Positions 1-64,000 of a stretch of DNA of 64,000 nucleotides are shown in pieces. Below the pieces are notes generated by a model, which worked only from the letters and a program-made list of their open reading frames with translations, had not been told where the DNA came from and did not search any database. This DNA comes from a virus. Each line of letters starts with the position of its first letter. Position 1 is the first letter of the stretch. The position numbers were made by a program, and so were the translations under genes. Location: IMG/VR virus record IMGVR_UViG_3300025138_000013; one strand, 5' to 3'.

Positions 1-1
1 C

Positions 2-730
2 GAAAGAAGAATATTCTACATCGATGTAGGTAACCTTCCAAAAGCAAAAGCAGAACAGTATCTTGCTGATGTAATGAACCGATACAAGAACAAGTTGGTT
101 TACAATGCAGATACAGGTGAAATCAAAGATGATAGAAAACATATGAGTATGTTAGAAGATTTTTGGTTACCTAGAAGAGAAGGTGGTAGAGGAACAGAGA
201 TTACTACATTGCCAGGCGGACAAAACCTAGCAGATATAGATGATATCGAATACTTCAAGAAGAAGTTATATCAGTCTCTAAACGTACCTTCATCTAGAAT
301 GGAAGCAGACAATGGGTTTAACATGGGTCGTGCTTCAGAGATTTCTAGAGATGAACTTAAGTTTAATAAGTTCACAAACAGACTTCAGAAGAAGTTTGGA
401 AGAGTTTTTACAGACATTCTTAAGACACAATTAGTACTTAAGGAAGTCGTAACAGGTGAAGAGTTCGATAAAATAAAGGACTTTTTCCTGTATGATTATG
501 CAACAGACAACCACTTTACAGAGTTGAAAGATGCAGAAATTTTAAGAGAGAGATTAGATACTCTCGGTCAGGCAGCTGATTACATTGGTAAATACTACTC
601 AGATGAATATATCAGAAAGTATGTACTAAGACAAACAGAAGAAGACATAAAAATAATTGATGCCCAAATCAAAAAAGAAGGAAGTGATGAGGGTGGAGAC
701 GATAACGAAGATGACTTCGGTGGATTTTAG
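2..730 (+). CDS. gp20: Portal vertex protein, C-terminal part (5' truncated by window)
   Basis: Frame open from base 2 (ERRIFYIDVGNLPKAKAEQYL); EDFWLPRREGGRGTEITTLPGGQNL is the T4-type portal signature. Confidence 0.97.
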   Translation, partial: ERRIFYIDVGNLPKAKAEQYLADVMNRYKNKLVYNADTGEIKDDRKHMSMLEDFWLPRREGGRGTEITTLPGGQNLADIDDIEYFKKKLYQSLNVPSSRMEADNGFNMGRASEISRDELKFNKFTNRLQKKFGRVFTDILKTQLVLKEVVTGEEFDKIKDFFLYDYATDNHFTELKDAEILRERLDTLGQAADYIGKYYSDEYIRKYVLRQTEEDIKIIDAQIKKEGSDEGGDDNEDDFGGF

Positions 731-739
731 GAGTAAATT

Positions 740-916: not shown

Positions 917-917
917 A

Positions 918-5950: not shown

Positions 5951-6479
5951 TATTAATAAATCCATTCTCAATAAGAATAATTTTAGACTTCTTATTGATA
6001 AGATACCCACAACAGAATACTATATTAAGAAGTGTAATATTCCTGGCGTGCAGTTTACAGAAATTGCACAAGGTGCTGGTGTTGGATTGGATGCATATTT
6101 TCCAGGCGACAAGGTTACGTTTGAAAATCTCTCAGTAGATTTCTTAGTCGATGAAGACTTATCAAACTTTAAAGAAGTATATGATTGGATGAATGCAATC
6201 GTACCAATCAAAGACCCATCTGATTATGCATCCTATGTTGGTAGTAAACAAACTGCAACTGGTACCTCTGCATCCCTAGGTGGAACTGATAAAGAGATGT
6301 CAGACATAACTTTGATTACAACAACCAACAAAAATATACCTAATAAATACTTTAGATTTCATGACTGTTTCCCAATCAGTTTGAGTGGTTTAGAGTTTGA
6401 ATCGGGTGCAGACGGAGAGGCTGTAGTAGCCACTATTGAATTTAAGTTTACTTACTACGACATAGAAACCACTAGTTAA
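5943..6479 (+). CDS. gp3: Tail completion / tube terminator protein
   Basis: NIPGV, PGDKVTFENLSVDFLVDEDLSNFKEVYDWM, FHDCFPISLSGLEF; synteny with uvsY-uvsW. Confidence 0.85.
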   Translation: MVDINKSILNKNNFRLLIDKIPTTEYYIKKCNIPGVQFTEIAQGAGVGLDAYFPGDKVTFENLSVDFLVDEDLSNFKEVYDWMNAIVPIKDPSDYASYVGSKQTATGTSASLGGTDKEMSDITLITTTNKNIPNKYFRFHDCFPISLSGLEFESGADGEAVVATIEFKFTYYDIETTS

Positions 6480-9948: not shown

Positions 9949-10064
9949 AATATACATTTATTTTTATACTCTTAACATCATGGGTCTTTAGTGACAGAGA
10001 GCCTGGAGCTTTAAGAGCAGTTAGAGATTTGGAAAAATTCAAACAACACATTCAAATGATATGA
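9945..10064 (+). CDS. Membrane or secreted microprotein (39 aa)
   Basis: ATGA overlaps on both sides; MKYTFIFILLTSWVFSDREPGALRAVRD. Confidence 0.55.
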   Translation: MKYTFIFILLTSWVFSDREPGALRAVRDLEKFKQHIQMI

Positions 10065-14387: not shown

Positions 14388-15731
14388 ATGAAATCATTCA
14401 ATCAACTACTCGACCCAAAACTGGAAGATATCAAACTTGATATCCCAACACTGGATGAAGCATTAGAAGTTAAAGACTTACCTTCAGAAGTAACCGATGG
14501 GTTGACCATTGAGAAACATAAAAAATCTAATAGTAAGACTACAGTTTTTGTTGTCAAGACACAAGATAGAGATAGTGATAGAGACGAGGTAGAAAAGAAG
14601 TTAAGGAATGCAGATATCACTGCAGAGGTGAAGGGAAGTTCATTATCAAGTTTTGACCCTATCTTTATTCCATCATTGAATGGAGACCGTGCAATCATCA
14701 TGTTTAAACCCAAGAGTGGTGGCATGAATGAGACAACACTAAACTCAAGTATCACAGAGTTGTTTCCTTGTATTGCATGGGAGAAGAACTACAAACCCAA
14801 ATCAGTTTCATCATTCTATGAGTGGATACTTCAACAGGATGTAGACAAGTTAAAGTGTGTTGGTAGTACAGACAAACAATCTGCAAAAGACTTCATTGCA
14901 CAAGCAGAAGATTCATCTAAGTTTCAAGAGAAAGTAGAGAATGCAATAGGTATTACAAAGTACATTTACGATGAAATGAAAGCGAAGTCAATCAAGAATG
15001 TTTTTTGGGGATACCGTGCAAAACCAGCTGGTGTTCCATCCAAACATCCAGGCGACATCTTCCTTCAGTTTACGGATGGTGCAATCTTAGGAACCTCTCT
15101 TAAAGCAGGTGGTAAGAAAACTTCAGAACCTAAACTCAACACATACGTAAACCCAATCTTCCAAGCATTTAAAGAGGGTAATCAAGTACCTAAGTTATCT
15201 GCAAAGTTACATAAAGAAGTATTCTCTAAGATTGAGGGTATGCCTTCTGCAAAAACCTATGATAGTAAAGATAGAAAAATTACCCAACAAGTCCTAAAGG
15301 ATTTTGACAAGAATAATAATGGTAAGTACGAACAGTACTATAACGAACACTTAGAGATAGTCAGACAAGCACTGATAGACCTATTCAATAAGAATGGTAA
15401 ACAGGGTGGTAAATCATTTGACTATATAAAGAAAGAAATTTTACGTGAAGCACCAGGCGTCCCAACTAAAGTTATTAAAGGAATTGGTTCCACGTATGAA
15501 CAGGTTACAGATGATGATGAACTCGGAGTATTTTTACCAGTAGTTAAGTTCATTAAAGCAGAAGCTTCTAAATCATCGAAACAGAATTGGTTCCTACACC
15601 TTGCATCGAAAGATACAACGTACACCATGCAAATGTCAGTGAGGACTAACAAAGCAGGACATGCTGGACTTAAGAAACTCGGACAATTTTATAACCTTGC
15701 CGTAAAATATAACGGTCTACTAAAGAAATAA
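14388..15731 (+). CDS. Hypothetical late protein with PD-(D/E)xK-like motif
   Basis: HPGDIFLQF...GTSLKAG; N-terminal MKSF...LDEA; TAAATA 5 nt upstream. Confidence 0.5.
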   Translation: MKSFNQLLDPKLEDIKLDIPTLDEALEVKDLPSEVTDGLTIEKHKKSNSKTTVFVVKTQDRDSDRDEVEKKLRNADITAEVKGSSLSSFDPIFIPSLNGDRAIIMFKPKSGGMNETTLNSSITELFPCIAWEKNYKPKSVSSFYEWILQQDVDKLKCVGSTDKQSAKDFIAQAEDSSKFQEKVENAIGITKYIYDEMKAKSIKNVFWGYRAKPAGVPSKHPGDIFLQFTDGAILGTSLKAGGKKTSEPKLNTYVNPIFQAFKEGNQVPKLSAKLHKEVFSKIEGMPSAKTYDSKDRKITQQVLKDFDKNNNGKYEQYYNEHLEIVRQALIDLFNKNGKQGGKSFDYIKKEILREAPGVPTKVIKGIGSTYEQVTDDDELGVFLPVVKFIKAEASKSSKQNWFLHLASKDTTYTMQMSVRTNKAGHAGLKKLGQFYNLAVKYNGLLKK

Positions 15732-25070: not shown

Positions 25071-25086
25071 CTCTTAATAGAGTTTG

Positions 25087-25117
25087 AAAAAGAGGGACGT
25101 TTATCGTCCCTTTTTTT
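25087..25117 (+). terminator. Intrinsic terminator
   Basis: AGGGACG-TTTAT-CGTCCCT followed by T-run. Confidence 0.85.
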
Positions 25118-25151
25118 GGCTTACAAGAAAGTAAAAAGAATAAATAATTGC

Positions 25152-25448
25152 ATGAATGAGATATTTGAGTTGATAGGTGAAGTGGGAGCCCCAATTGCTG
25201 GAAGCATAGTCATGGGATTTTTTATCTTTACTGTTATCAAACAAATCCTTGAGGGTGTTGTTGACGATATAAAAACGTTAACGATGTTCTGCAAGTCCTT
25301 AGAAAACCGTGCGAGAACAATGTCAAATGAAATGATTAAGATTGACATGTTAGTCTCGTCAGCACTTGAATTGAGACCCGATATAGAACGTATTGCACGT
25401 GCAGAAAACTTTATAGAAGACGGTAAGCTCGACGTAAGAAGGGATTAA
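25152..25448 (+). CDS. Small single-TM coiled-coil protein, first gene of curli operon
   Basis: TAAATA-N5-ATG; GAPIAGSIVMGFFIF TM. Confidence 0.7.
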   Translation: MNEIFELIGEVGAPIAGSIVMGFFIFTVIKQILEGVVDDIKTLTMFCKSLENRARTMSNEMIKIDMLVSSALELRPDIERIARAENFIEDGKLDVRRD

Positions 25449-25449
25449 C

Positions 25450-25767
25450 ATGGAAACTGAAGTTGTTGAAGTTGTAGCAAATACAGACCCCACGTTAGTT
25501 ACTCTACTTAATGAATATGGTTTTCCTATTGTCATGATGGTTGGACTAGGATATTTCATTTATTATATTTGGTGGTTCGTAGGTGAAAAACTAGAACCCG
25601 AAATAGAGAAACAACATTTTGCACTCATCAAAGTGATTGACCAAGTCAGAATGTTAGACCAAGATTTAATTCGTTTACAACAGAAGGTAGACGTGGTTCT
25701 CGAATATAAAGAGAACGCAAAAAAGAAAGAGGTTATGAATGCAGAAAATAGCAGCGATAATAATTAG
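25450..25767 (+). CDS. Small single-TM coiled-coil protein, probable paralogue of previous gene
   Basis: YGFPIVMMVGLGYFIYYIW; RMLDQDLIRLQQKV aligns with RTMSNEMIKIDMLV. Confidence 0.7.
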   Translation: METEVVEVVANTDPTLVTLLNEYGFPIVMMVGLGYFIYYIWWFVGEKLEPEIEKQHFALIKVIDQVRMLDQDLIRLQQKVDVVLEYKENAKKKEVMNAENSSDNN

Positions 25768-26200: not shown

Positions 26201-26203
26201 ACA

Positions 26204-27830: not shown

Positions 27831-28929
27831 TTTTCTTCTGATTGGTTCACTTGCAATTGCAGCTGAACCAATTGGTGAAATAGTCGAACAGAAAGGATAC
27901 GCGGGTTTACAGAGAGACGGTTCACAAACCATTCTCTCTGCATCCGAGTTACCCGATGTGCTGATGTATGATACAGCACAAACCGTAAACGGTAGAATGA
28001 AAATCCAGTTCAAAGGAACTGAAGAGTTGGATTTAACAGAACATACCAAGGTTTGGATAGACGAGGTTTATTACGACCCCGACCCATCCAAGTCCAAAAT
28101 GGCCATAAGAATGGCCCAAGGCACCGCCCGATTTGCTTCGGGTTTTGGTGGAAAAATTAAGAAAGCTAACATAAATATAACTACCCCGACTGCACAGATA
28201 ACAGTCAACGGCACCGACTTCACTACAAGTATTGATGAAATCGGAAGGTCACTTGTTATATTGCTGCCTGATAAATGGGGAGCTCCTTCGGGAAGTATTT
28301 TAGTTAGTAATGCAGGCGGTGAAGTATTATTAGATGAGGCCTATCAAGCAACTATGGTTTCTACATATGACTCATCACCAACTAAACCAGTAGTGGTTAA
28401 TGGGATTACACCCAGTTTAATTGACAACTTATTCATTGTCAGTCCACCCGACGAGGTGAATGAACAAGTTGCAGAAGAACAAAGAAGTAACGAGAATGAT
28501 AGTAACAATGTTCTTGATGTAGATTTCTTAGAGTTCAATGACCTAGAAGAAAATTACTTTGAGGATGATGAATTAGAATACACGGAACTCGACAGAGACT
28601 TATTAGATGTCGATTTCCTACAGGATTTACTAGATGTTGTCTTGGATATTGACCGTAAGGTTGGTATTGATAGAGAAGTATCTAATGCCTTCGGAGTGGT
28701 TCGTATTGACGGAACTCTACCAGGCTTTGATAAAGACACTCAATACAATACAATTGTAGACAAGGGTCTTGGTCAGATATGGTTCTACAGGGAAGTGAAT
28801 GGAATTATTTCTATTAGACTCCCTATATATGCTCAAGCAAGTATTAGAACTATAACAGACGAAAAAGAGTCACTAATTAGGGTGGGTGATGGTTCGTCTC
28901 TAAATATCACCATCACACAAACAAACTAG
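27790..28929 (+). CDS. FecR-domain exported protein with acidic linker
   Basis: DTAQTVNGRMKIQF, GTARFASG, ITTPTAQITVNGTDF, GSILVSN; start uncertain. Confidence 0.8.
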   Translation: MQILTSFKKTITINFLLIGSLAIAAEPIGEIVEQKGYAGLQRDGSQTILSASELPDVLMYDTAQTVNGRMKIQFKGTEELDLTEHTKVWIDEVYYDPDPSKSKMAIRMAQGTARFASGFGGKIKKANINITTPTAQITVNGTDFTTSIDEIGRSLVILLPDKWGAPSGSILVSNAGGEVLLDEAYQATMVSTYDSSPTKPVVVNGITPSLIDNLFIVSPPDEVNEQVAEEQRSNENDSNNVLDVDFLEFNDLEENYFEDDELEYTELDRDLLDVDFLQDLLDVVLDIDRKVGIDREVSNAFGVVRIDGTLPGFDKDTQYNTIVDKGLGQIWFYREVNGIISIRLPIYAQASIRTITDEKESLIRVGDGSSLNITITQTN

Positions 28930-32149: not shown

Positions 32150-32587
32150 ATGACAAGTAAACAGCTCGGAGACTTCGATGTCTTCAATTTCGGGAAATCA
32201 TTCCCATTCGCAATCGGGTTCGACAGAACTCTTCAACTATTAGAACGTGCCAATCAGTCACCGACTAATACAAACTATCCACCTTACAATATTGTAAAAC
32301 ACGATGCAGAGAACTTCAGTATCGAACTTGCATTAGCTGGATTTGATAAAAAGGACATCACAATCTCAAAAGAGAAAGAGGTTCTTAATATCGAAGGTAA
32401 ACAAAAGGAAGGGGAAAACCTTGAGTACGTCCATAGAGGACTTGCAGCTCGTTCATTCAAAAGAACATTCACACTTGCAGACGACATTGTCGTTAAAGGT
32501 GCAGACATGAAGAATGGTATTTTGAGTGTATCTTTGGAAAGGATTATACCCGAAGAAGATAAACCCCAAAAAATCAAAATTTCTTAA
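32150..32587 (+). CDS. hsp20: Small heat-shock protein Hsp20 (IbpA-like)
   Basis: NYPPYNI, ELALAGF, HRGLAARSFKRTF, NGILSV. Confidence 0.96.
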   Translation: MTSKQLGDFDVFNFGKSFPFAIGFDRTLQLLERANQSPTNTNYPPYNIVKHDAENFSIELALAGFDKKDITISKEKEVLNIEGKQKEGENLEYVHRGLAARSFKRTFTLADDIVVKGADMKNGILSVSLERIIPEEDKPQKIKIS

Positions 32588-32658: not shown

Positions 32659-33186
32659 ATGACAGAAGAAAGAAGAATGGGATTAGAAATTATCGAAGGG
32701 GAAACTAAAGTACCCGAAGTAGTCCTACCTCAGAGAATTGATGGTGAATTCGTAACACTAGACACACAACAACAGTTTGCTGGTAAAAGAGTAATTGTAT
32801 TTGGTTTGCCTGGCGCATTCACTCCAACATGTTCAACACAACAATTGCCTAGCTTTGATGAGAGATTTGAAGAGTTTAGAGAAAAGGGAATTGATGAGAT
32901 TTATTGTGTATCAGTGAATGATACATTCGTAATGAACTCATGGTTCGAATCATTAGGTATCAAAAATGTTTACCCTCTTCCCGATGGTAACGGTGAGTTT
33001 ACTCACTTGATTGGTGCAGAATGTTCTAAATCAAATCTTGGTTTTGGATATAGGTCTTGGAGATATGCAGTTGTAATCAACGATGGTGTAATTGAAAAAG
33101 CATTCATTGAAGATGGCTATCAAGACAATGCAGAGTCCGACCCTTATGAGACTTCAAGCCCAGAAAATATATTGAAAAATCTTTAG
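32659..33186 (+). CDS. Peroxiredoxin (Prx5 type)
   Basis: LPGAFTPTCS, CVSVNDTFVM, DGNGEFT, RSWRYA. Confidence 0.95.
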   Translation: MTEERRMGLEIIEGETKVPEVVLPQRIDGEFVTLDTQQQFAGKRVIVFGLPGAFTPTCSTQQLPSFDERFEEFREKGIDEIYCVSVNDTFVMNSWFESLGIKNVYPLPDGNGEFTHLIGAECSKSNLGFGYRSWRYAVVINDGVIEKAFIEDGYQDNAESDPYETSSPENILKNL

Positions 33187-33230: not shown

Positions 33231-34508
33231 ATGATGAGTGATAATAAATATTTTCAATACAATCTAGAAGACCTTCACCGTAACAGTGAAAGTAAACAGT
33301 TTAATTACATTACTTTCTTTGCAGGCGGTGGTGGTTCTTCATGTGGTTACAAACTAGCAGGTGGTGACGTTCGTTACATGAACGAGTTCCAACAGTTACA
33401 TGTTGACACCTACCTAGAAAACTTCCCTAACACAGTACATGAATGTAGAGACATCAAAGAAGTCACTGCAGAAGGTATCATGGAGCTTAGTGGACTTAAG
33501 AAATACGAATTAGATATCATGGATGGGTCACCACCTTGTCCACCATTTTCTATGGCAGGTTCCAAGAAAGAAGGATGGAACCAAGAGAAGATGGCATATG
33601 GTATGAAGCAACAGAACATTGAAGACCTAACATGGGAAATGATTAGGATTGCCGAAGGGTTAATGCCTAAAGTTATAATATGTGAGAACGTGAAAGGTCT
33701 TTCAATGGACTATGCAAGAGACCATCTAAACAGGATGGTAAACGATTTCGAAGCACTAGGATACTCAGTGACTTGGAAAATCATGAAGGGACATCAGCAT
33801 GGTGTACCTCAGAAGAGAGAAAGAGTATTCATGGTTGGTGTACGTGACGATGTACTTGAAGGTATTGGAATGCCTTGGATGTGCATGTCATCTGTATTCC
33901 CCGACCCAGTAAAAGAATTTGCATCTATAGAAGATGCAATCCATGATTTAGAAACCGATGAAGATAACATGAAAGATGCAGCTTATCTAGAGACTGCCAT
34001 GGACGATTCTTCAAAAGGTCATTGGGTAAATGGATTTGATGTTCATCCCGATGAAAAGTTTGAAGGTTGTGTTCCATGTAAAGGTCTTACACCAGTATTA
34101 AAAGAAAGAGACAACCAAGCATATACCTCTATTGGAGACCATATTGTAAAACCATGGTTCCAAGAGAACATTGCACTAGGACATATCAAACCCGAAGATG
34201 AGAAACATTCTTACTATATGTCAAGAATAGTTCCTAAACATCTACCAGCTCATTCATTGACTGAACAAGGTTGTCAACCTAAGTTTATGGGTGGTAATCA
34301 TTTCCACCACAGTGGTAAAAGAATTTACACACCAAAAGAAATGGTAAGATTAATGACTCTACCAAACGACTATAAAATGACTGGTGATTACAATGATAAA
34401 GGTGCAAGAATAGGATTGATGGTAGCACCATTGTGTATGTACTACTTAGTTGAAAACATTAAAGGACAAATATTAGAACCATGGAATTCACTGCAACAAA
34501 AGACTTAG
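33231..34508 (+). CDS. DNA (cytosine-5) methyltransferase
   Basis: FAGGGG (I), GSPPC (IV), ENV (VI), QKRER (VIII). Confidence 0.95.
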   Translation: MMSDNKYFQYNLEDLHRNSESKQFNYITFFAGGGGSSCGYKLAGGDVRYMNEFQQLHVDTYLENFPNTVHECRDIKEVTAEGIMELSGLKKYELDIMDGSPPCPPFSMAGSKKEGWNQEKMAYGMKQQNIEDLTWEMIRIAEGLMPKVIICENVKGLSMDYARDHLNRMVNDFEALGYSVTWKIMKGHQHGVPQKRERVFMVGVRDDVLEGIGMPWMCMSSVFPDPVKEFASIEDAIHDLETDEDNMKDAAYLETAMDDSSKGHWVNGFDVHPDEKFEGCVPCKGLTPVLKERDNQAYTSIGDHIVKPWFQENIALGHIKPEDEKHSYYMSRIVPKHLPAHSLTEQGCQPKFMGGNHFHHSGKRIYTPKEMVRLMTLPNDYKMTGDYNDKGARIGLMVAPLCMYYLVENIKGQILEPWNSLQQKT

Positions 34509-35482
34509 GATTTAAAGAAACATTCAAAGAATGGAACGGTAAGTATCTTACTGAAGATTCTTATGATACTGTTATATCATCCATTGGTGTCGAGGATGAC
34601 ATCATTAAAATCTATAAACCTCATGGTACACTCATGGGTGAAACCTTACTTGCATGTATTGTAAAGAGAGCATATACAGGTACGACTTATCAAACAGTTA
34701 AAGACACTTTGTTCTCTATCGATGATACATCTACAATGAGAGCAAATGCAGCCGGGCCTATCGACCATGAAGAGATGAAGGCAAAAGGATTAATCGAAGG
34801 AAAGGACTATGTCCTAAGAACTCCAAACAGTTACTACCCACTTAAGAAGAACGGTGAGTTCAATCGTATTGCAGAAGCAAACGAGATTCATTCAGTTCTA
34901 ATCGGGTATAAACGTGGCAGATTCACAGGAATGATTAAGGCAAGTGGATGGATGGATAAGAAATCCAACAAAGAAAAGTTTGAAACCTTATCACAGATTG
35001 CAAACGTCAATGAACAAGCATTGAAGACTGCAGTTCCCGAAGTATACAACTTACAAAAAACTTTTGCAGATGAATGTATAGATGAGAAGTATCACATTGG
35101 TGGTTCACCGATGACAGCTTTATCTGCAAACAAATATTCAACTGGTGGGACTGCAAAGATGTCTGCACATTTGGATGGAAAAGATTTAGAGTTCGGAATG
35201 ACAACTATGTGTGTCTTCCGTATTGGAGAATTTGGGGGTGCATACTTATGTTTCCCTAGATATGGTATTGCTATTGAAGCAGATGATGGAGACGTACTGA
35301 TTGCAGATTCAAATGAATTGCACGGTGTATCACCTATCACTGGTGAAGGAGTAAGGTTATCATGTGTTGCATATTGTGATGAACATGTTGCAACTAAAGG
35401 GAGAGCTGGAAAGACTGAGAATCCTATCGGCCCACATGCTGGAAAGTATGAGGAGAAAGGTTCACTCGACAGCTTTTTCTAG
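34481..35482 (+). CDS. TET/JBP-family 2OG-Fe(II) dioxygenase
   Basis: AHLDGKD, GGAYLCFPRYGIA...GDVLIAD..ELHGVSP...RLSCVAY; overlaps the C5-MTase gene. Confidence 0.85.
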   Translation: MEFTATKDLGFKETFKEWNGKYLTEDSYDTVISSIGVEDDIIKIYKPHGTLMGETLLACIVKRAYTGTTYQTVKDTLFSIDDTSTMRANAAGPIDHEEMKAKGLIEGKDYVLRTPNSYYPLKKNGEFNRIAEANEIHSVLIGYKRGRFTGMIKASGWMDKKSNKEKFETLSQIANVNEQALKTAVPEVYNLQKTFADECIDEKYHIGGSPMTALSANKYSTGGTAKMSAHLDGKDLEFGMTTMCVFRIGEFGGAYLCFPRYGIAIEADDGDVLIADSNELHGVSPITGEGVRLSCVAYCDEHVATKGRAGKTENPIGPHAGKYEEKGSLDSFF

Positions 35483-35567: not shown

Positions 35568-36704
35568 ATGACAACACAAAATCACCTGTTCGCAGGTTTA
35601 AAAAAGAGCTACGATATAGAACTCACCCGAGAACTATGTCCACCCAAAGAAACTTATCAAACTTGTAAATTCAAGAAAAGACTTGTAGTACACAAGGATA
35701 AGATTCACATCATTGACCCTATTACAGGGGAACCATTGCAACCGAGAGAAGAAATCAATCTCACTCAAAATGTTATTGAGATTAAAACTTCATTCAAGTA
35801 CAGAGGTTGGTTACATTCAGAAGAACCACTATTTGTACAAGTCGCTGCTGATGGAAACTTCATTCTAAGAAGTGGATTCAACAGATACAAAGCTGCAACG
35901 GAAAGTGGTTGGGAATATCTATTAGTAGATGTGTATGAAGATGCACCAGTCCAAAAGGACAACATTGCATTTAAGTATGTTTGTAACAATACTAACCTAC
36001 CATCTAAACCTAATAAAGATATTGACTTCATTAGAGGTGTAGTAGAAGCGATTGATGCAAATGCAATCAATCAAGAAGTCGAAGCAGAGATAATCTCATT
36101 CTTAAAACAAATCACATCAACAGATGATGGTATGCGTTTAAAGACAGATGAAGAGATTGTCAACTATGTCGATGTAACGGAAGTAAATGACGATGGTTCA
36201 GAGAGTACTATTCAAGAACTATCATCTTCATGTTTACTATATAAAGTCTATAGACAAAGAGGAAAGAACAGAAACATTCTACCATTAGATGGTAAGGGTG
36301 CAAACCAAATTCTAAACTCTCTTAAAAAAGGATGGGCTGGAGCAAGAAACAAAGATGTTACTGAGTTAGGTTATTGTTTTGAGAAGAAGACTACATGTCA
36401 CAGGATATTGTGGGATGGTATGAAACTTTATAGTAAATATCAAACACCTATCATGTTATATGGTTATGTTGAGAATCCCTCATCAATGACTTTAAAGTCT
36501 GATAGAATAGAAACACTTGCAAGATACGAGTGGTTCATAGAAGAATGTGTAAGAAGATTTACGGATTCTCTTGACTATCACAAGATGGGACTTAACTTCA
36601 TGGAACTTGAATGGAAGTTCAGAGAAATCTTTCAGTGGGGTGGATTTATACCTCAAGATAAAACACCACATTGTGATGAAAGTGGAAGGATAGTAGAACT
36701 ATGA
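35568..36704 (+). CDS. Hypothetical protein with ParB/Srx-like N-terminal domain
   Basis: PLFV...FILRSGFNRYKAA resembles the ParB GxxR motif; late box CTAAATA at 35485. Confidence 0.55.
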   Translation: MTTQNHLFAGLKKSYDIELTRELCPPKETYQTCKFKKRLVVHKDKIHIIDPITGEPLQPREEINLTQNVIEIKTSFKYRGWLHSEEPLFVQVAADGNFILRSGFNRYKAATESGWEYLLVDVYEDAPVQKDNIAFKYVCNNTNLPSKPNKDIDFIRGVVEAIDANAINQEVEAEIISFLKQITSTDDGMRLKTDEEIVNYVDVTEVNDDGSESTIQELSSSCLLYKVYRQRGKNRNILPLDGKGANQILNSLKKGWAGARNKDVTELGYCFEKKTTCHRILWDGMKLYSKYQTPIMLYGYVENPSSMTLKSDRIETLARYEWFIEECVRRFTDSLDYHKMGLNFMELEWKFREIFQWGGFIPQDKTPHCDESGRIVEL

Positions 36705-37237
36705 TTATAATGGTTGGTGGAGTTCCATGTTCGGGAAAGTCAACTCTCATGAGAAGACTTATCTCTAGGTTAGATGAACCCAATCTAATTGAACCGATGA
36801 AACTATTTAAGTGCCAAGAACATGGTGACATATTAGTAGTCGGTCAATATCCCGAGGGAGAGACATTCGGCGGAACTGATAAGCTCTCTCACGGTTCTAT
36901 CCCACAGTTTAGAGAGTTCATTGAAGCAATGAACATTGCATACAAACATGTTCTAATAGAAGGTGATAGATACTTTAGAGGAGTAGACATAGAATGGTTG
37001 ATGCAAAACCATGAAGCATTAGTTTACGTTCTAACAGTAGACATATCCGAAGAACACAATCGTCACACAGAACGTGGAGACACACAATCAGAAGTATGGC
37101 TGAAGGGAAGACGAACACAGATAAATAACATACTAACAAACATGAATCTTTTAGGACAACTAAATATTCGTGATAATGATTCAATAGAATCATCTATGAA
37201 AATAGAAGAGGAGATATATGCCAAAATTATTCAATAA
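36701..37237 (+). CDS. P-loop nucleotide kinase-like protein
   Basis: GGVPCSGKST, FGGTDKLS, LIEGDR. Confidence 0.75.
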   Translation: MIIMVGGVPCSGKSTLMRRLISRLDEPNLIEPMKLFKCQEHGDILVVGQYPEGETFGGTDKLSHGSIPQFREFIEAMNIAYKHVLIEGDRYFRGVDIEWLMQNHEALVYVLTVDISEEHNRHTERGDTQSEVWLKGRRTQINNILTNMNLLGQLNIRDNDSIESSMKIEEEIYAKIIQ

Positions 37238-41133: not shown

Positions 41134-41616
41134 ATGGCATACTCAGATGAAGTAGTAAAACGATTCGAATCCGTTCTTGCAAACCCAAAAAAACACTCAG
41201 TTGGTTCACTAGATAGGAAAGACCCCAAGGTCGCAACAGGACTTGCAGGAGCTCCTGCTTGTGGTGATGTGATGCAACTTCAACTATTACTAGATGACAA
41301 CGAAAAAATTGTCGATGTAAAATTCAAGACTTACGGATGTGGAAGTGCAATTGCATCTTCGTCATTGTTCGTAGACATGATGATGGGTAAGACTATTGCA
41401 GAAGCAAAACTCATCAAGGACAAAGATATTGCAGAGGTGTTACAATTACCACCGATAAAATTACATTGCAGTGTACTAGCAGAAGACGCTATCAGACAAG
41501 CGATGGTGGACTATGAGACAAAACAAACAGAAGGTTATACACATCCTATTTTAGACCAATCAATGATAGGTCATAACAACCCGCCACCCCTTTCAAGAGA
41601 AGACTTCATCGAGTGA
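41134..41616 (+). CDS. iscU: Fe-S cluster scaffold IscU
   Basis: GAPACGDVM, FKTYGCGSAIASSS, LPPIKLHCSVLAEDAI. Confidence 0.95.
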   Translation: MAYSDEVVKRFESVLANPKKHSVGSLDRKDPKVATGLAGAPACGDVMQLQLLLDDNEKIVDVKFKTYGCGSAIASSSLFVDMMMGKTIAEAKLIKDKDIAEVLQLPPIKLHCSVLAEDAIRQAMVDYETKQTEGYTHPILDQSMIGHNNPPPLSREDFIE

Positions 41617-41637
41617 AGAAAAAAACTAAATAAGTTT

Positions 41638-42096
41638 ATGGCTATATTCAAACAAAGTGAATTTCACGTTAAGGTAACAAAAATCGTAGACGGCGATACA
41701 GTTGATGTCGATATCGACTTAGGCTTTTCTACAGTTCTAAAAAAACAAAGAGTGCGTCTTATGGGAATCGATACCCCCGAGTCACGTACAAGAGATTTAG
41801 TGGAGAAATTATTTGGTAAAGCATCTAAGAAACATCTTACACATCTTTTATCAGAAGGTGATATCACCCTCATTAGTCACGACAAAGGAAAATTCGGAAG
41901 AATACTTGGAGAGTTATTTGTTCATAACGAAGATGAGTCAGTCATCAATATCAATAAACAAATGATTCTTGACCATCATGCAGTAGAATATACTGGTGAG
42001 AACAAAGATACTACTACAGAACGTCACATGGAACATAGACAACTTCTTTTAGAGAAAGGAACTGTTACTCAAGAACAGATTGACGAGGTATCCTAG
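41638..42096 (+). CDS. Staphylococcal-nuclease-like (thermonuclease) protein
   Basis: VDGDTV, RVRLMGIDTPE, GKFGRILG. Confidence 0.9.
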   Translation: MAIFKQSEFHVKVTKIVDGDTVDVDIDLGFSTVLKKQRVRLMGIDTPESRTRDLVEKLFGKASKKHLTHLLSEGDITLISHDKGKFGRILGELFVHNEDESVININKQMILDHHAVEYTGENKDTTTERHMEHRQLLLEKGTVTQEQIDEVS

Positions 42097-43393: not shown

Positions 43394-44738
43394 AGAGTTT
43401 ACAAGGAAGGTAATACCATTCCTTAAGGAAGAGTATTTCTCCGAGTCGGACGAGAAGACCGTGTTCAACGAAGTAGGTTCCTATTTCGATAAGTACACTA
43501 AACCACCTACAGTGGAAGCACTTCTCATAAATCTAGATAACAACTCGTCACTCAATGACAGTGTTTTATCTAGTGCAAAAACTATTGTAGATAGTATTAG
43601 TAAGGACAAAGAAGACACACCAATCGATTGGTTGGTGGAAGAGACTGAAAAGTGGTGTCAAGATAGAGCAATCTATATTGCAGTCATGGATAGTATCGAA
43701 GTCATCGACAAAAAGTCCCAACGCTCGACTGGGGAAATACCCGACCTTTTAAAAGAAGCTTTATCTGTATCGTTTGACACTAATATCGGTCACGATTTCA
43801 TTGAGAACTCAGACGATAGATTTGAATTCTATCACACTGAAGAAGAGAAACTTCCATTCGATTTAGAATACTTCAACAAAGTCACCAAAGGTGGATTACC
43901 AAACAAAACTTTAAACATATGTCTTGCTGGTACTGGTGTTGGTAAGTCATTATTCATGTGTCATATGGCATCTGCAAACTTAATGATGAACAAGAATGTG
44001 TTATACATTACATTAGAAATGTCAGAGGAAAGGATTGCAGAAAGAATCGATGCAAACACATTGAATATTCCTATGCAAGATTTACCCGACTTATCTAAGA
44101 AAATGTTTGATAAGAAGATTGACAAGATTAAAGAAAAGACTAAAGGTAAACTTATCGTAAAGGAATATCCAACTGCATCAGCTCATGTAGGTCACTTCAG
44201 ACATCTACTTCAAGAGTTGAATATCAAGAAAGATTTTAAACCCGATATGATTTATATCGACTATCTAAATATATGTTCAAGTGCAAGAGTCAAGCCAGGA
44301 GCTGGTGCAAACTCATACACATTAGTGAAGAGTATTGCAGAAGAACTTAGAGGACTTGCAGTTGAGTTTGATGTACCAATCATGAGTGCAACACAAACAA
44401 CACGTAGTGGTTATGGTTCTACAGATGTGGAACTAACAGATACTTCAGAATCATTTGGATTACCAGCGACTGCAGACTTTATGTTTGCACTGATTACATC
44501 CGATGAACTGGAAGAACTAGACCAAATGGTAGTAAAACAATTAAAGAATAGATACAATGACCCAACCGTATTTAAAAGGTTTGTCATAGGTGTCGACAGA
44601 AGTAGAATGAAACTCTATGACTGTGAACAAGAAGCACAGGAAGAACTCATTGACTCAGCAGTCAACGATGATGTTCCAGTGTTTGATAGAGGAAGAAATG
44701 ATGGACAGAAACGAGATTTCTCAGAATTCAAGGTCTGA
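43341..44738 (+). CDS. gp41: Replicative helicase
   Basis: [38 protein letters not shown]. Confidence 0.97.
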
Positions 44739-47228: not shown

Positions 47229-48511
47229 TGAAAGAATTCGGTAAATTTTTAACAGAAGCAAAAGACAAGGGTGTTGTATTTACATTCGGTAGATTCAACC
47301 CACCCACAACAGGTCATGCAAAATTAGTAGACAAGCTTAAAAAAGAAACCAGCGGTGGTTATCAACCAATGCTTTTCTCATCTCATTCAAACGACAAAAA
47401 GAAAAATCCATTAGACCATAAACTCAAAGTAAAATATCTTAAGAAATTCTTTGGTAAGATAGTTGCAGATGTACAAGCACGTACTGTATTTGAGATTGCA
47501 AATGAATTACATAAACAAAATTTCAAACGTGTTAAGATGGTAGTTGGTTCAGACAGAATTAAAGAATTTGAAATGTTACTGAAGAAGTACAACGGAGTTA
47601 AAGCAAGGCACGGCTACTATAAATTTGATGATATACAAATTGTATCAGCAGGGGAGAGAGACCCCGATGCAGATGACCTAAGTGGAATGAGTGCATCTAA
47701 ATTAAGAGCTCTTGCAGAAGTCGGTGATTTTAAAGCATTTGCACAAGGTGTTCCGACTAGGAATAAAAAAGATATTGAACAACTATACAAAGACATCCGT
47801 AGAGGGATGGGAATTGTTGAGTCATCTTTACCCGACTATATGATTGAAGATTTAATTACTGAAGGAGTCTATGACCAAGGAACATTCAAAGCAGTGTTTT
47901 TCTCGGGTGGCCCAGGCAGTGGTAAGTCAACAGTGGTACAAAAGTTATCACTAAAGGCATTAGGACTGAAGATGGTAAACACCGATGCAGCTTTTGAAAA
48001 TGGATTAAAAAAGGCAGGAATGTCACTTGATTTACGTGGTGCAGACTTTGATAAAGTTGACCCTATTCGTGCAAAAGCAAAGAGTATCACTACAAAGAAT
48101 ATGAACAACTATATTGGTGGTAGACTTGGAATGATATTTGATACTACTAGTGCAAACATTGCTAAAGTACAGAAATATAAGAAGTCATTAGATGCATTAG
48201 GATATGAATCTAAAATGATATACGTAAGTGCATCACTAGACAATGCACAAAAGAGAAATGCATCAAGACCTAGAAAATTACCAGCTGAGATAGTAAAATC
48301 AGATTGGGAAAAATCTAGAAAGAATGCAGCTGCACTGAAAAAAATCTTTAGTAGAGATTATATAGAAGTCACAAACGATGAAGGATTAAAGGAACTAGAT
48401 AAAGCTGCAACTAAGATGTACACAAAATTACTTGGTTGGACTGGTGCATTCCCAAGTAATAAGAAAGCACTTGCATGGAAACAAGCAGAACTGGATGCTA
48501 AAAAACGATAA
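47228..48511 (+). CDS. Cytidylyltransferase-family nucleotidyltransferase fused to a P-loop kinase
   Basis: FGRFNPPTTGH, VGSDR, MSASKLR; second domain GGPGSGKS, IFDTT, KRNASRPR. Confidence 0.85.
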   Translation: MKEFGKFLTEAKDKGVVFTFGRFNPPTTGHAKLVDKLKKETSGGYQPMLFSSHSNDKKKNPLDHKLKVKYLKKFFGKIVADVQARTVFEIANELHKQNFKRVKMVVGSDRIKEFEMLLKKYNGVKARHGYYKFDDIQIVSAGERDPDADDLSGMSASKLRALAEVGDFKAFAQGVPTRNKKDIEQLYKDIRRGMGIVESSLPDYMIEDLITEGVYDQGTFKAVFFSGGPGSGKSTVVQKLSLKALGLKMVNTDAAFENGLKKAGMSLDLRGADFDKVDPIRAKAKSITTKNMNNYIGGRLGMIFDTTSANIAKVQKYKKSLDALGYESKMIYVSASLDNAQKRNASRPRKLPAEIVKSDWEKSRKNAAALKKIFSRDYIEVTNDEGLKELDKAATKMYTKLLGWTGAFPSNKKALAWKQAELDAKKR

Positions 48512-48519: not shown

Positions 48520-49470
48520 ATGGACATATTAGAATCTATACTTAACGAAAGAAAGGTCAAACAAGACAAAGACATTGAAGACCGTAAAGGTACTCAACCA
48601 TCCAAGTATTACGCAAAGGATGCTGATGGTGACGAAATGTCTAAGTCTACCAAACAAAAACGTGCAGCTCATTTTGCACAGAAAAAAGACGGCCCTGCAC
48701 CTGGCGACCATGATGCAGATACTAAACCTTCCAAACATACTAAAAAGTACAAAGATATGTACGAAGATGCTGGTAAGTCACTTGCAAAGAAAGCTGATAA
48801 ATCGGGGATATCAAAAGGTATTCTACAACAGGTTTATAACAGAGGTGTGGCTGCATGGAAGACTGGTCATAGGCCAGGCACTACTCCAGAGCAGTGGGGA
48901 CATGCAAGAGTAAATTCATTCATCACCAAAGGTAAAGGAACATGGGGTGGTGCAGACAAAGACCTTGCAAAGAAAGCTGGTGCATCTGAATCAGTCCAAG
49001 AAGGTAAATTAGTTACTAGTGCTCAAGACATCATTGCTCTAATTTTGAAAAAAGTTGGTCAAAAAATGGAAGATGAGTTTACAAAGAATCCCGAAAAAGG
49101 TATTGGCCTTATCAATACAATCGGTGCAATGGTTAAACATAAAGTTACCAATAAGAAACAAGAGAAAGGTAAACTATTTCTTAAATTCGGTGACAATCTA
49201 GAGGGTGATTTATTAGAAGATGCAGCCGTAGATGCAGCGGAGTTAAAAGCAAAACAAGCAGGTGAACTCGAACGTCTTAAACTAAGACAAGAGGACGAAC
49301 TCGAAGCATTGACTAAAAGACACGAAAGAGAAACAGAAAGAGTCGATGGTCAGAAAGAGAAAGAGACTGCAGACAAACAAATTCAATCAAAACGTGATGC
49401 AGACAGAAAGAAAGCAGAAACGAAATCAGAAAGTTATAAAACTATTTTAAAGGTAAGGGGAATAAAATGA
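48520..49470 (+). CDS. Probable internal head protein
   Basis: KSGISKGILQQVYNRGVAAW...WGHARVNSF module; several L/V-x-E sites. Confidence 0.65.
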   Translation: MDILESILNERKVKQDKDIEDRKGTQPSKYYAKDADGDEMSKSTKQKRAAHFAQKKDGPAPGDHDADTKPSKHTKKYKDMYEDAGKSLAKKADKSGISKGILQQVYNRGVAAWKTGHRPGTTPEQWGHARVNSFITKGKGTWGGADKDLAKKAGASESVQEGKLVTSAQDIIALILKKVGQKMEDEFTKNPEKGIGLINTIGAMVKHKVTNKKQEKGKLFLKFGDNLEGDLLEDAAVDAAELKAKQAGELERLKLRQEDELEALTKRHERETERVDGQKEKETADKQIQSKRDADRKKAETKSESYKTILKVRGIK

Positions 49471-49961
49471 GTGGGAACAAACATGATAACGGAGTCCATG
49501 AAGTTGGAACAGACGAAACCAAAAAGGCATATCAAGAAGATACTCCAGGCCAACAGGTAGAGGAATATCTATCACAGGTCAAGGTTGTCAATGAAGAGAG
49601 ACAAAAGAAACACTTCTCTACTAAGTACCCTAATCCATTAAAAGGATTCCCTTACAATGAAGAGAAACTAGAAGAAGCATGTTGGGATGGTTACGTTCAG
49701 AAAGGATTCAAAACAAAAAATGGTAAACAAGTACCAAACTGTGTCCCTATAGGTGAAGAAATACAAGAAGCATTTAGACCTAACCCCGAATTAAGAGATG
49801 TTAAGAAACTTGATAAAATGCTAGAGAGTGCATACAAAAGTATGAACAAATTACAAAATGGTAAATCCCTCTATCTGAGAAAATGCAATGATGGTATTGT
49901 AGACGCTAGAAGAGCTTTAGACGAATATGTTGATGCTATTGAGAGCGGAAAGCTTGACTAA
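49467..49961 (+). CDS. Probable internal head protein
   Basis: LEEACWDGY...VPNCVP, IQEA. Confidence 0.6.
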   Translation: MSGNKHDNGVHEVGTDETKKAYQEDTPGQQVEEYLSQVKVVNEERQKKHFSTKYPNPLKGFPYNEEKLEEACWDGYVQKGFKTKNGKQVPNCVPIGEEIQEAFRPNPELRDVKKLDKMLESAYKSMNKLQNGKSLYLRKCNDGIVDARRALDEYVDAIESGKLD

Positions 49962-57888: not shown

Positions 57889-57891
57889 ATT

Positions 57892-60850: not shown

Positions 60851-63156
60851 ATTCAGAGTTCAAAGTAATTAAATCAGATGGGACAAAGAGACCTATTGAT
60901 TTAGATAAGATACACAGAATGGTAGAGAAAGCTTGTGACGGTATCACAGGTGTTTCAGAGTCATCCGTCGAGATGAACAGTGGTTTACAATTTTATGATG
61001 GAATCACTACACGTGATATCCAAAAGATACTTGTAAAAAGTGCAAGTGATTTAATCTCATTAGAGAATCCTAACTATCAGTTTGTCGCTGCAAGATTACT
61101 ACTATTTGGTGTACAGAAACAAGTGTTCAACACTAGATGGAAAGACAGTGAAATCTATCCACCACTAGGAGACATAGTTCTAAGAAACATAGACCACGGT
61201 GTGTATGATAAAGACATTCTTAATTATTATGAGAAGGAAGAGATAGACCAGTGTAATTCATTTATCAGACACAACAGAGATTTAACTTTTACATATGCTG
61301 GTCTACAACAGATAGTAGACAAGTATTTGGTACAAGACAGGTCATCCAATACATTATTTGAGACACCACAGTTCATGTACATGATGATTGCGATGACATT
61401 ATTTAAAGACTACGGAGAAAGTAGGTTACAATATGTCAGAGGATATTACGATGCAATATCACAATTTAAAATTAACATCCCCACACCAATTATGGCGGGG
61501 GTCAGAACACCACTTCGACAATTTGCAAGTTGTGTTCTCGTCGACAGTGACGACACCCTCGACTCAATCTTCTCCAGTGACATGGCAATCGGTAAGTACG
61601 TTGCTCAGAGAGCTGGAATTGGAATCAACGCAGGAAGAATTAGGGGAATTGGTAGTAAAATTAGAGGGGGTGAAGTCCAACATACTGGAGTCATACCATT
61701 TCTTAAAAAGTTTGAAGCAACCGTCCGAAGTTGTACACAGAATGGCGTCAGAGGCGGAAGTGCAACAGTACATTTCCCAATCTGGCACGCTGAAATCGAG
61801 GATATCCTTGTCCTTAAAAACAATAAGGGAACAGAAGATAATAGAGTCAGAAAGTTAGATTACTCTATTCAGTTATCAGAACTATTTTATAAGAGATTTC
61901 TGAAGAACGAGGACATATCATTGTTCTCACCGCATGATGTTAAGGGACTGTATGATGCATTTGGAACACCCGAGTTCGATGCATTATATGAGAAGTATGA
62001 ACGTGCAACTAGTATTCCAAAGAAGAAGATTGGTGCAAGACATCTATTTACAAGTTTATTAAAAGAAAGAGCAGAGACTGGCCGTATTTACATTATGAAT
62101 ATCGACCATTGCAATACGCATAGTAGTTTTATCGACAAGGTTAACATGAGTAATCTATGTCAAGAGATAACACTACCCACCGACCCTATCAGTCATATTG
62201 ATGGGGAAGGTGAGATTGCGTTATGTATTCTTTCTGCAATTAACGTAGGTATTATCAAGAACTTAGATGAACTTGGACACCTATGTGACCTTGCAGTTAG
62301 AGGGTTGGAAGAACTAATAGACTATCAGAAGTATCCAGTGATTGCAGCTGAGAAATCAACAAGAGCAAGACGTTCATTAGGAATAGGATACATTGGTCTC
62401 GCACATTTCCTTGCGAAGAACAAGGTTAAGTATGATGACCCCGAAGCACATAAACTAGTGCATGAACTAACAGAAAGATTCCAGTTCGAACTACTAAAAT
62501 CATCTAATCAGATTGCATCCGAGAAAGGTGCATGTGATTACTTTGATAGAACTAAGTACTCTCAAGGATTACTACCTATTGATACATACAAAAAGGATGT
62601 TGACACTATAACCCCACACGTGTTAAAATGTGACTGGGATAAACTAAGAACATGTATAAATGTGCATGGTTTAAGACACTCAACTCTTACTGCACAGATG
62701 CCTTCAGAGTCCTCTAGCGTCGTCTCTAATGCAACGAATGGTGTAGAACCACCAAGAGACTACCTCAGTGTCAAGAAAAGTAAAAAAGGAACCCTAAAAC
62801 AGGTAGTTCCACAATACAGTACACTTAAAAACAATTATACATTACTATGGGATATGCCTAGTAATGATGGATATATTAAAGTACTTGCAGTGATGCAAAA
62901 GTTCTTTGACCAAGCGATTAGTGGTAACTGGTCTTATAACCCCGAGAATTATGACAAGGGTGAAGTACCAGTATCAGTCATGGCTCAGGACATGTTGAAC
63001 ACATACAAGTATGGATGGAAGACATCATATTACCAAAACACAATGGATGGTAAGGTAGAGGATGTAATTACAGACCCTAATTCAGCGTCTAACGATTACA
63101 TACCACCAATGATGCACACTGAAGATGAGGAAGATTGCGATGCCTGTGCCATATGA
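60847..63156 (+). CDS. nrdA: Ribonucleotide reductase class Ia alpha subunit
   Basis: ATP-cone, PTPIMAG, QFASC, SNLCQEI, KTSYY, C-terminal CDAC. Confidence 0.97.
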   Translation: MNSEFKVIKSDGTKRPIDLDKIHRMVEKACDGITGVSESSVEMNSGLQFYDGITTRDIQKILVKSASDLISLENPNYQFVAARLLLFGVQKQVFNTRWKDSEIYPPLGDIVLRNIDHGVYDKDILNYYEKEEIDQCNSFIRHNRDLTFTYAGLQQIVDKYLVQDRSSNTLFETPQFMYMMIAMTLFKDYGESRLQYVRGYYDAISQFKINIPTPIMAGVRTPLRQFASCVLVDSDDTLDSIFSSDMAIGKYVAQRAGIGINAGRIRGIGSKIRGGEVQHTGVIPFLKKFEATVRSCTQNGVRGGSATVHFPIWHAEIEDILVLKNNKGTEDNRVRKLDYSIQLSELFYKRFLKNEDISLFSPHDVKGLYDAFGTPEFDALYEKYERATSIPKKKIGARHLFTSLLKERAETGRIYIMNIDHCNTHSSFIDKVNMSNLCQEITLPTDPISHIDGEGEIALCILSAINVGIIKNLDELGHLCDLAVRGLEELIDYQKYPVIAAEKSTRARRSLGIGYIGLAHFLAKNKVKYDDPEAHKLVHELTERFQFELLKSSNQIASEKGACDYFDRTKYSQGLLPIDTYKKDVDTITPHVLKCDWDKLRTCINVHGLRHSTLTAQMPSESSSVVSNATNGVEPPRDYLSVKKSKKGTLKQVVPQYSTLKNNYTLLWDMPSNDGYIKVLAVMQKFFDQAISGNWSYNPENYDKGEVPVSVMAQDMLNTYKYGWKTSYYQNTMDGKVEDVITDPNSASNDYIPPMMHTEDEEDCDACAI

Positions 63157-64000
63157 AGATAAGACTGTAATATATACGTATCCCGACGAGGAGAGGATGA
63201 AAAAAGATGGAGAGACTCCTCAAAGACTAAGTGGTAGAACTAATCAGTTGACTTGGGACTTGATGAAAGATAGGTTTGTTGTCTTACGTAATTTCATTCC
63301 TAAAGATATTATTAACATGTCATTAGATACATGGAAGACTATTGAACACAATGAATCATGGGATGAAGCAATATTCAACAGAGAACATGAAATCACTCAA
63401 AACTCACCTAAAGATTCTTTAGGAAAATCTAAAGCTAATTACTGCACTCCGATGGCAGTTTCCCTACATAGATGGCTAAAGGAAAAATTAGACAACGTAA
63501 TTGATATGGGATTAAGAGAAACATACTCTTATACTCGGAAATACGACAGAGGTGCATACCTAAGAGCTCACACTGATAGACCATCATGTGAAATAAGTGC
63601 AACCATATGTCTAGATTACAGGACAGATGACAATGCACCTTGGAAAATATGGGTACAGAACGATGGTAACTATGTCGACATGGGTAATATGGATGAAGTG
63701 TATGATATGTCTCAAGGATTACAACACAGAAATAGAAAAGGTATTCCAATAAGTTTAGAGCCTGGTGATGTTTTATTATATCAAGGGCCCAATGTAATAC
63801 ACTGGAGAGATTATTTAGTAGGTGATTACTCATACCACATCTTCTTACATTTCTTCAATGAAGACAGTAAGTTATTGAATATAGACAAAATGCATACAGA
63901 CATAGAAGACCATTTTGCATTATCGTTTGATGGAAGACCACATAGATATGCAGATGAAAATAGTGAAGAAGTAGTTGGTAAAACCAAAGAAAAGTTTAGA
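63140..64000 (+). CDS. 2OG-Fe(II) oxygenase (3' truncated, not in ORF track)
   Basis: TYSYTRKY...HTDRPSCEISATICL, PGDVLLYQG...HWR...HIFLHF. Confidence 0.85.
   Translation, partial: MPVPYEDKTVIYTYPDEERMKKDGETPQRLSGRTNQLTWDLMKDRFVVLRNFIPKDIINMSLDTWKTIEHNESWDEAIFNREHEITQNSPKDSLGKSKANYCTPMAVSLHRWLKEKLDNVIDMGLRETYSYTRKYDRGAYLRAHTDRPSCEISATICLDYRTDDNAPWKIWVQNDGNYVDMGNMDEVYDMSQGLQHRNRKGIPISLEPGDVLLYQGPNVIHWRDYLVGDYSYHIFLHFFNEDSKLLNIDKMHTDIEDHFALSFDGRPHRYADENSEEVVGKTKEKFR

Follow-up and report, generated by a model that had tools for sequence, protein, structure and literature searches.

The 64,000-nucleotide (nt) stretch of the IMG/VR virus record IMGVR_UViG_3300025138_000013 analyzed here (the window) encodes a C5 cytosine DNA methyltransferase (C5-MTase) together with a dioxygenase of the TET/JBP family (TET), and its restriction-type words follow a conditional rule. 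Several words are missing altogether, and others occur only, or nearly only, where a cytosine at their edge forms a GpC step with the adjacent base. The pattern is replicated in relatives, is accompanied by covariation at orthologous sites and is restricted to genomes carrying the enzyme pair. Judging from these sequence patterns, it is very likely that a phage mark at GC[C/T/G] shields the sites that it overlaps at an edge, and that target words left uncovered by the mark have been removed by selection.

Conditional avoidance of restriction-type words

The window has a G+C content of 37% and carries nearly all of its genes on the plus strand. Expected counts were obtained from 300 synonymous-codon shuffles of the 90 plus-strand genes called in the window, permuted per gene, with the proteins and the per-gene codon usage kept. 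Sites with a 5' G or a 3' C giving a GpC step are termed flanked, and those with neither are termed unflanked.

A preliminary description of the sequence had claimed that GATC, GGACC and GGTCC are lacking, and by program count each is indeed at zero, against 174.7 expected copies of GATC (standard deviation 10) and 36.4 of GGWCC. CCGG is reduced from 27.4 expected copies to one, the GCCGG already singled out in that description. The 14 copies of CCWGG (32 expected) were found exactly where they had been reported, each with its flank: flanked sites exceed expectation (14 vs 6.9), whereas unflanked sites are absent (25.4 expected, with 13 as the lowest count in any shuffle). Similarly, CCWGA/TCWGG is scarce (27 vs 160 expected), and the deficit lies in unflanked copies (8 vs 141) and not in flanked ones (19 vs 18.6). 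CCCGA is used instead, as had been noted, with 84 copies against 31 expected. CCTCC/GGAGG falls to 2 copies from 63 expected, and both survivors read GCCTCC. GTGCAC (7.5 expected) and GACGTC (6.8 expected) do not occur.

Other words are common, in line with the earlier reading of TGCA, AGCT and GGCC: TGCA is present 575 times against 350 expected (z +16.7), AGCT 158 times and GGCC 43 times against 25, and GGSCC rises to 29 copies from 9 expected. Set against codon-preserving shuffles and split by GpC overlap, the counts of GATC and GGWCC are thus not normal, and the flanks of CCWGG do not match background. This window-wide pattern is far beyond chance, and the control phages do not display it under the same method.

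Codon choice at the sites

All 14 CCWGG sites lie in frame as Pro-Gly, the sole dipeptide that is forced to spell CCNGG. At 11 of them glycine is encoded by GGC, a codon that accounts for 6% of the glycine codons of the window. The dipeptide itself is depleted, with 14 occurrences against 41 expected (ratio 0.34), while three control phages display ratios of 0.87-1.42. The preliminary description had proposed that unshieldable sites were purged by mutation; the purge stands, but as Pro-Gly itself is depleted, it points to selection and not to mutation alone.

The neighboring codon choices follow the same rule. In all 24 Gly-Pro pairs, GGC or GGG precedes CCN, which bears out an earlier claim to this effect, while the controls use GGT or GGA. 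Of the 79 prolines that precede Asp or Glu and have no 5' G, 76 are encoded by CCC, as against none of the 6 that have one; elsewhere, CCC makes up 9% of the proline codons.

On the plus strand GGAGG is absent (51 expected) and GAGG stands at 0.57 of expectation, and therefore the ribosome-binding sites of the phage cannot use the full GGAGG core. Avoidance of Shine-Dalgarno sequences as the only cause of the GGAGG loss was rejected, as CCTCC on the coding strand is likewise purged unless G-flanked.

Replication in relatives, controls and covariation

The family-B DNA polymerase of the window shares 47% identity with cyanophage gp43. For the methylase and for a conserved protein of 400 amino acids (aa), the best match is in the OM43 (Methylophilales) myophage Melnitz (52-53%; 53% for the methylases), with the pelagiphage HTVC008M next. 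Based on these similarities, the window represents an uncultured, T4-like marine phage of the Kyanoviridae that resembles Melnitz; a nucleotide search of the window against phage records gave no match. For comparison we used the cultured Melnitz genome (MZ577097, 141.5 kb), a methylase-anchored set of 80 IMG/VR loci with the window-type methylase (55-99% identity, 973 kb pooled) and a polymerase-anchored set of 71 loci fetched with the polymerase, some contigs of which are common to both sets. The Kyanoviridae phages S-RSM4 and HTVC008M served as controls under the same shuffle method; a search for C5-MTase and TET in their complete genomes found neither.

In Melnitz, CCWGG is present as 68 flanked and 0 unflanked copies (25 and 65 expected), CCGG as 15 flanked and 0 unflanked copies (22 and 47 expected), and GGWCC is absent (62 expected). 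The 80 loci display 129 flanked and 0 unflanked CCWGG (94 and 323 expected), 38 flanked and 0 unflanked CCGG (90 and 345 expected), 5 GGWCC (516 expected) and 8726 TGCA (5586 expected). Zero unflanked sites were found in all 71 of the polymerase-anchored loci. Further words in the pooled clade behave alike: CTCGAG (flanked 16 vs 15.5 expected, unflanked 5 vs 44), CGTACG (11 vs 6.3 and 0 vs 16) and CCTNAGG (25 vs 20.5 and 2 vs 55.5), joined in the window-like group by CGCATT (18 vs 5.5 and 1 vs 60.5). The flank rule is common to about eight independent words, asymmetric ones included. Avoidance of GATC differs by lineage, from zero copies to normal counts, and so does that of ACGT, GTAC, CGCG, AGCT and CCWGA, which is what differing host repertoires would give.

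In the controls, flanked and unflanked CCWGG are close to expectation, at 21 and 47 copies in S-RSM4 (23 and 48 expected) and 9 and 41 in HTVC008M (9 and 39 expected), and GGWCC counts are normal. Instead, both phages avoid the GpC-containing words AGCT, GGCC, GGSCC and TGCA, and the avoidance spectrum is thus inverted in the clade with the enzyme pair. GTGCAC and GACGTC, absent from the window, are missing together with GGTACC in S-RSM4 too, which has no modification genes. In positions 80001-130000 of HTVC008M, CCGG is present as 9 flanked and 1 unflanked copies (7 and 7.5 expected), and TCGA is at 0 against 60; a different shielding modification is possible in this phage.

Covariation was read from 194 observations of Pro-Gly at seven orthologous positions: 83 carry the 5' G alone and 49 the 3' C alone, both are present in 62, and none has neither. 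At the helicase site (44295), all 7 orthologues without the 5' G use GGC, whereas those with it are free to use GGA, GGT, GGC or GGG. The two flanks are never both missing, and one is present when the other is absent; the 5' G and the 3' C therefore substitute for each other.

GpC contexts that would shield

In all rescued words, the base after the shielding GC is C, T or G. A GCA flank fails to rescue CACGTG, with flanked copies at 10 vs 32 and unflanked copies at 11 vs 41 in the pooled clade, and GTGCAC, in which the GpC lies within TGCA, is at 0 vs 135 across the same clade. GCG flanks, by comparison, rescue CGTACG and CGCATT in the window-like clade. The preliminary description had the methylase and TET at 33-35 kb modify GpC and thereby shield the sites. 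The flank rule, its replication, the covariation and its absence in controls speak for this claim, but it was drawn too widely, as GCA contexts seem to be unshielded.

TGCA is the only one of the 16 NGCN contexts that an enzyme specific for GC[C/T/G] would leave unmodified on both strands. Among these contexts in the window, TGCA is at 1.64-fold and GGCC at 1.73-fold of expectation (the latter from small counts), TGCC and GGCG occur about as often as expected, and the remainder is depleted. The abundance of TGCA would thus stem from escape from modification and not from shielding. Its enrichment arises by synonymous choice: in four-fold degenerate boxes of the window, 77% of codons before GCA end in T, while the share before other G-starting codons is 27-60% (60% before GGT, 27-49% before the others) and in HTVC008M before GCA 36%. 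Loss of alanine through deamination of 5-methylcytosine (5mC) was rejected as the source of the TGCA excess, as alanine shows no depletion after Lys, Glu or Gln (X-Ala dipeptides at 0.86-1.02).

As a tentative and rather doubtful extension, the genome may be tuned in both directions, with GC[C/T/G] placed to shield unavoidable sites and modifiable GpC removed synonymously elsewhere. If true, this would mean that the mark carries a real cost, such as modification-dependent restriction, and that the phage practices a minimal, targeted economy of modification. Selection against GpC modifiable on one strand only was rejected as a general rule, as hemi- and fully modifiable contexts are similarly depleted; only Ala-Ala pairs hint at it. 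The codons of these pairs alternate in the window (GCA-GCT 26, GCT-GCA 23, GCT-GCT 6, and GCA-GCA 1 with about 29 expected). GCAGCA/TGCTGC is at 3 vs 37 in the window and at 93 vs 399 in the pooled loci, a deficit that could mean that this sequence is one more target word, or that GpC which can be modified on just one strand is avoided.

Putative modification gene cluster

The cluster containing the methylase, the proposed source of the mark, is listed in Table 1 with the individual sites. In an alignment, the methylase motifs FAGGGG, SPPC, ENV and QKRER (motifs I, IV, VI and VIII) are intact, and its variable region harbors a 22-residue insert, defined relative to the Melnitz enzyme and not to clade I references. 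The nearest solved structure is CmoX (8YF3, E 1e-66). Assignment of the methylase as a CmoX was rejected, as it has Leu (GLMV for GRMV) in place of the carboxymethyl-binding Arg350, even though SPPC is present. The TET displays an HxD motif (HLD) at residue 230, followed by downstream His and Arg residues that were read by eye and not from alignment to a solved TET.

Searches of the 378-aa protein in Pfam and PHROG gave no match, and an Atlas search gave only a weak hint of ParB. Its AlphaFold model (mean predicted local distance difference test score, pLDDT, 78.6) matches the N-domains of ParB, Noc and KorB by Foldseek over about 150 of the 378 residues (E 2e-5 to 1e-4, probability 1.0), so that in the predicted structure its N-terminal half folds like a ParB N-domain. 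In the 80 loci, the slot between TET and kinase is occupied by this protein, by a distant 330-aa homologue (22-26% identity), by a form of 390-420 aa or by nothing, and the kinase is absent in several lineages. The methylase and TET form the constant core, and the footprint is unchanged across these cassette variants. Near-complete relatives encode this one C5 methylase and no other, and no methylase of the Dam type was found in them.

Table 1. Positions of the modification genes and of the GpC-flanked sites in the window
Feature	Position	Strand	Details
Window-wide conditional word avoidance	1..64000		GATC, GGWCC, GTGCAC, GACGTC absent; CCGG, CCWGG, CCWGA, CCTCC (nearly) only GpC-flanked; TGCA enriched
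Hsp20 gene	32150..32587	+	Pfam PF00011, E 2.4e-18
Redoxin/AhpC-type gene, directly upstream of methylase	32659..33186	+	Pfam PF08534, E 3.9e-28
C5 cytosine DNA methyltransferase, proposed source of the mark	33231..34508	+	PF00145, E 1.2e-47, 163 bits (cut-off 22)
TET/JBP 2-oxoglutarate-Fe dioxygenase, overlaps methylase gene	34481..35482	+	PF12851, 49.3 bits (cut-off 34.9)
378-aa ParB/Srx-like protein, between TET and kinase	35568..36704	+	Predicted structure, Foldseek
P-loop nucleotide kinase 3 (P-LK), candidate 5-hydroxymethylcytosine-DNA kinase	36701..37237	+	PF18751, 29.9 bits (cut-off 27)
CCAGG, Pro-Gly	212..216	+	Both 5' G and 3' C
CCTGG, Pro-Gly	6042..6046	+	3' C (GGC codon)
CCAGG, Pro-Gly	6102..6106	+	3' C
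CCTGG, Pro-Gly	10002..10006	+	5' G (preceding codon GAG)
CCAGG, Pro-Gly	15048..15052	+	3' C
CCAGG, Pro-Gly	15453..15457	+	3' C
CCAGG, Pro-Gly	28720..28724	+	3' C
CCTGG, Pro-Gly, redoxin gene	32809..32813	+	Both flanks; at least one flank kept in 53/53 orthologues
GCCGG, sole CCGG of the window, inside TET gene	34751..34755	+	Window-like relatives likewise keep 1-2 flanked copies
CCAGG, Pro-Gly, DnaB-like helicase	44295..44299	+	5' G; Pro-Gly kept in 62/63 orthologues
CCAGG, Pro-Gly	47912..47916	+	3' C; flank type switches among orthologues
CCTGG, Pro-Gly	48700..48704	+	3' C
CCAGG, Pro-Gly	48874..48878	+	Both flanks
CCAGG, Pro-Gly	49545..49549	+	3' C
CCTGG, Pro-Gly	63761..63765	+	5' G

The tail of the TET (35462-35482, ...GSLDSFF) resembles that of the DNA polymerase (41102-41125, ...ASLDSFFG), and the corresponding pair in Melnitz ends in ...NLNDFLGE and ...TLEDFFG. 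To judge by these residues, it looks like a shared sliding-clamp-binding tail, which would tether the TET to replicating phage DNA. Upstream of hsp20, the region at 25.7-31.8 kb carries genes for a curlin-repeat protein (29091-29894) and a CHASE2 adenylate/guanylate cyclase (29894-31753); Melnitz shares this arrangement, with genes for csgF, csgG, curlin, FecR and a cyclase. The polymerase gene is directly followed by a NifU/IscU-like gene and a staphylococcal nuclease (SNase) homologue, which together span 41134-42096.

Origin of the footprint

The mechanism that we propose comprises several steps, of which the chemistry of the mark, the blocking of cleavage and the identity of the nucleases are what we infer. 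Homology, gene neighborhood and footprint suggest that the phage C5-MTase writes 5mC at GC[C/T/G] on new phage DNA. The adjacent TET, probably together with the P-loop kinase and the ParB-like protein, would convert 5mC to 5-hydroxymethylcytosine (5hmC) or a bulkier derivative. A modified outer C of a target word would block cutting, even with only one strand marked. Restriction-type nucleases of the host would select away about a dozen words that cannot be marked, among them GATC, GGWCC, unflanked CCGG, CCNGG, CCWGA and CCTCC. Copies forced by the protein sequence, mainly Pro-Gly, would survive only with the rare GGC codon or with a preceding G-ending codon that makes a GCC step.

Several observations weigh against this mechanism. 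Even when flanked, CCGG stays below expectation (1 vs 7 in the window, 36 vs 97 in the pooled loci), indicating that protection is unequal across words. TGCGCA, which contains GCG, is at 0 vs 27 in the pooled loci, and the window has few copies of GCGC (4 vs 16). In Melnitz, the GCY-containing words AGCT (132 vs 374) and AGCC/GGCT (144 vs 325) are strongly depleted, which the shielding model does not explain. The purge of CCGG, CCNGG and GGWCC is universal across the lineages of the clade while that of GATC is variable, which leaves some room for a phage-intrinsic cause. Five large polymerase-anchored contigs display the footprint but no methylase, and they are only 17-33% complete. Finally, about 75% of GC is modified by a homologous enzyme in phage S-B43 (PMC12783734), and yet its genome still avoids AGCT and GGCC and follows no flank rule. 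The notion that any GpC modification leaves a flank footprint was rejected on the grounds of S-B43, and the footprint probably requires near-complete modification.

An alternative that we regard as improbable is that phage-encoded nucleases degrade unmarked host DNA, the GC[C/T/G] mark being a self label as in chlorovirus restriction-modification. The universal purge of CCGG, CCNGG and GGWCC, set beside the differing avoidance of GATC, ACGT, GTAC and CCWGA, fits a cause carried by the phage, and the window does encode nucleases, including the SNase homologue (41638-42096). However, each of at least five distinct palindromes would call for a site-specific nuclease of its own, none of which is recognizable, the loss of GTGCAC, GACGTC and GGTACC extends to S-RSM4 with no modification genes, and the lineage-specific purges look like differing host repertoires.

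The mark might also be made by a host methylase or a second phage enzyme, the C5-MTase and TET being merely correlated with it; we give this little credence. The five contigs with the footprint and no detectable methylase speak for it, but at such low completeness they are fragments from which nothing can be concluded, and for this reason they were set aside as natural knock-outs. Moreover, near-complete relatives have a single C5 methylase and none of Dam type, host methylation would cover whole sites and not only G-flanked copies, and the deduced context, GC[C/T/G] but not GCA, coincides with the specificity measured for this enzyme clade.

Host nucleases with extended recognition sequences, cutting only at sites that lack G/C flanks and with no modification involved, would fit the bare pattern, but nothing further was found in favor of this reading. 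That about eight unrelated words, asymmetric ones included, obey an identical 5' G/3' C rule, and that related phages lacking the enzymes show no CCWGG flank bias, makes this explanation highly implausible. A by-product of mutation or codon-pair bias (deamination of 5mC or CpG, translational codon context) would agree with the depletion of CpG and GpC and the excess of TpG and CpA, but is just as hard to sustain against exact zeros where tens to hundreds are expected, a purge on both strands that includes coding-strand CCTCC, compensatory covariation at orthologous sites, a T|GCA preference that is synonymous choice given undepleted X-Ala, and the fact that deamination would erode flanked and not unflanked sites.

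Comparison with known systems

The enzyme pair, its GpC preference and restriction-site avoidance in general are already known; for flank-conditional site avoidance, no description was found in the literature searched. Burke 2021 (PMC8256090) characterized such enzymes (C5-MT/TET, or 5mYOX, clusters) in E. coli and not the composition of phage genomes, which is what the present study reads. In clade I/A of that work, heat-shock protein (HSP) and redoxin genes co-occur, a P-loop kinase or glycosyltransferase lies downstream of TET, and the methylases carry an extra insert in the target-recognition region. Two of them, C5-MT43 and C5-MT88, methylate GC[C/T/G] but not GCA by enzymatic methyl sequencing (EM-seq), whereas clade II, with the polymerase upstream, methylates GCY or GCN (PMC8256090). 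The window resembles clade I/A in its order of Hsp20, redoxin, C5-MTase, TET and P-loop kinase, possibly in the insert of the variable region, and in that the specificity deduced from its footprint is the one measured for C5-MT43 and C5-MT88. The assignment is made by gene neighborhood and footprint.

The closest cultured relative, Melnitz (PMC9004378), has the same cluster of methylase, TET, unknown protein and kinase and the same flank rule. In contrast to the window, the polymerase gene of Melnitz precedes that of the methylase (clade II/B architecture), its methylase lacks the 22-residue insert, and CGCG and AGCT are purged. The window-like group tolerates CGCG (57 vs 68) and Melnitz purges it (1 vs 54-56), in keeping with the difference measured between the enzymes of clades I and II. 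The Melnitz paper annotates only a 'type II methylase' and mentions neither TET nor footprint (PMC9004378).

A further relation is the 5-carboxymethylcytosine pathway of S-B43, formed by CmoA, CmoX and CmoY (PMC12783734; 8YF3). CmoX is a GC-specific carboxymethyltransferase from the same virus family and shares SPPC with the window enzyme. The window enzyme differs in having Leu for Arg350 and in being paired with TET and not with CmoA, and the flank rule of the window has no counterpart in S-B43. In the freshwater cyanophage S-CRM01, a gene annotated as C5 'methyltransferase' adjoins a 'tRNA methyltransferase' gene (25080-26917), resembling the CmoX/CmoA pair, and this phage displays essentially no word avoidance.

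The role of GpC-limited, post-replicative cytosine hypermodification is a matter of open debate. In a follow-up preprint (10.1101/2023.12.21.572611), the group that had discovered it considered broad protection from restriction by marks confined to GpC unlikely and left undecided whether phage or host DNA is the target. Conditional avoidance adds evolutionary evidence to this debate: it suggests a mark on phage DNA that is nearly complete at its motif, with a single modified edge cytosine sufficing per site and sequence evolution covering the sites that the mark cannot reach. It also makes a methylase motif readable from genome sequence alone, here separating GC[C/T/G] from GCY lineages. Melnitz on OM43 strain H5P1 is a cultured system that bears the pattern and in which the idea is testable.

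Bacillus phages with multispecific C5-MTases combine restriction-site avoidance with self-methylation, such that sites covered by the enzyme are tolerated and uncovered ones are counter-selected. Unlike in those phages, the motif in the window is a step of two to three bases that overlaps only the edges of unrelated words, and tolerance of a site hangs on its flanking base, which is kept codon by codon and with covariation.

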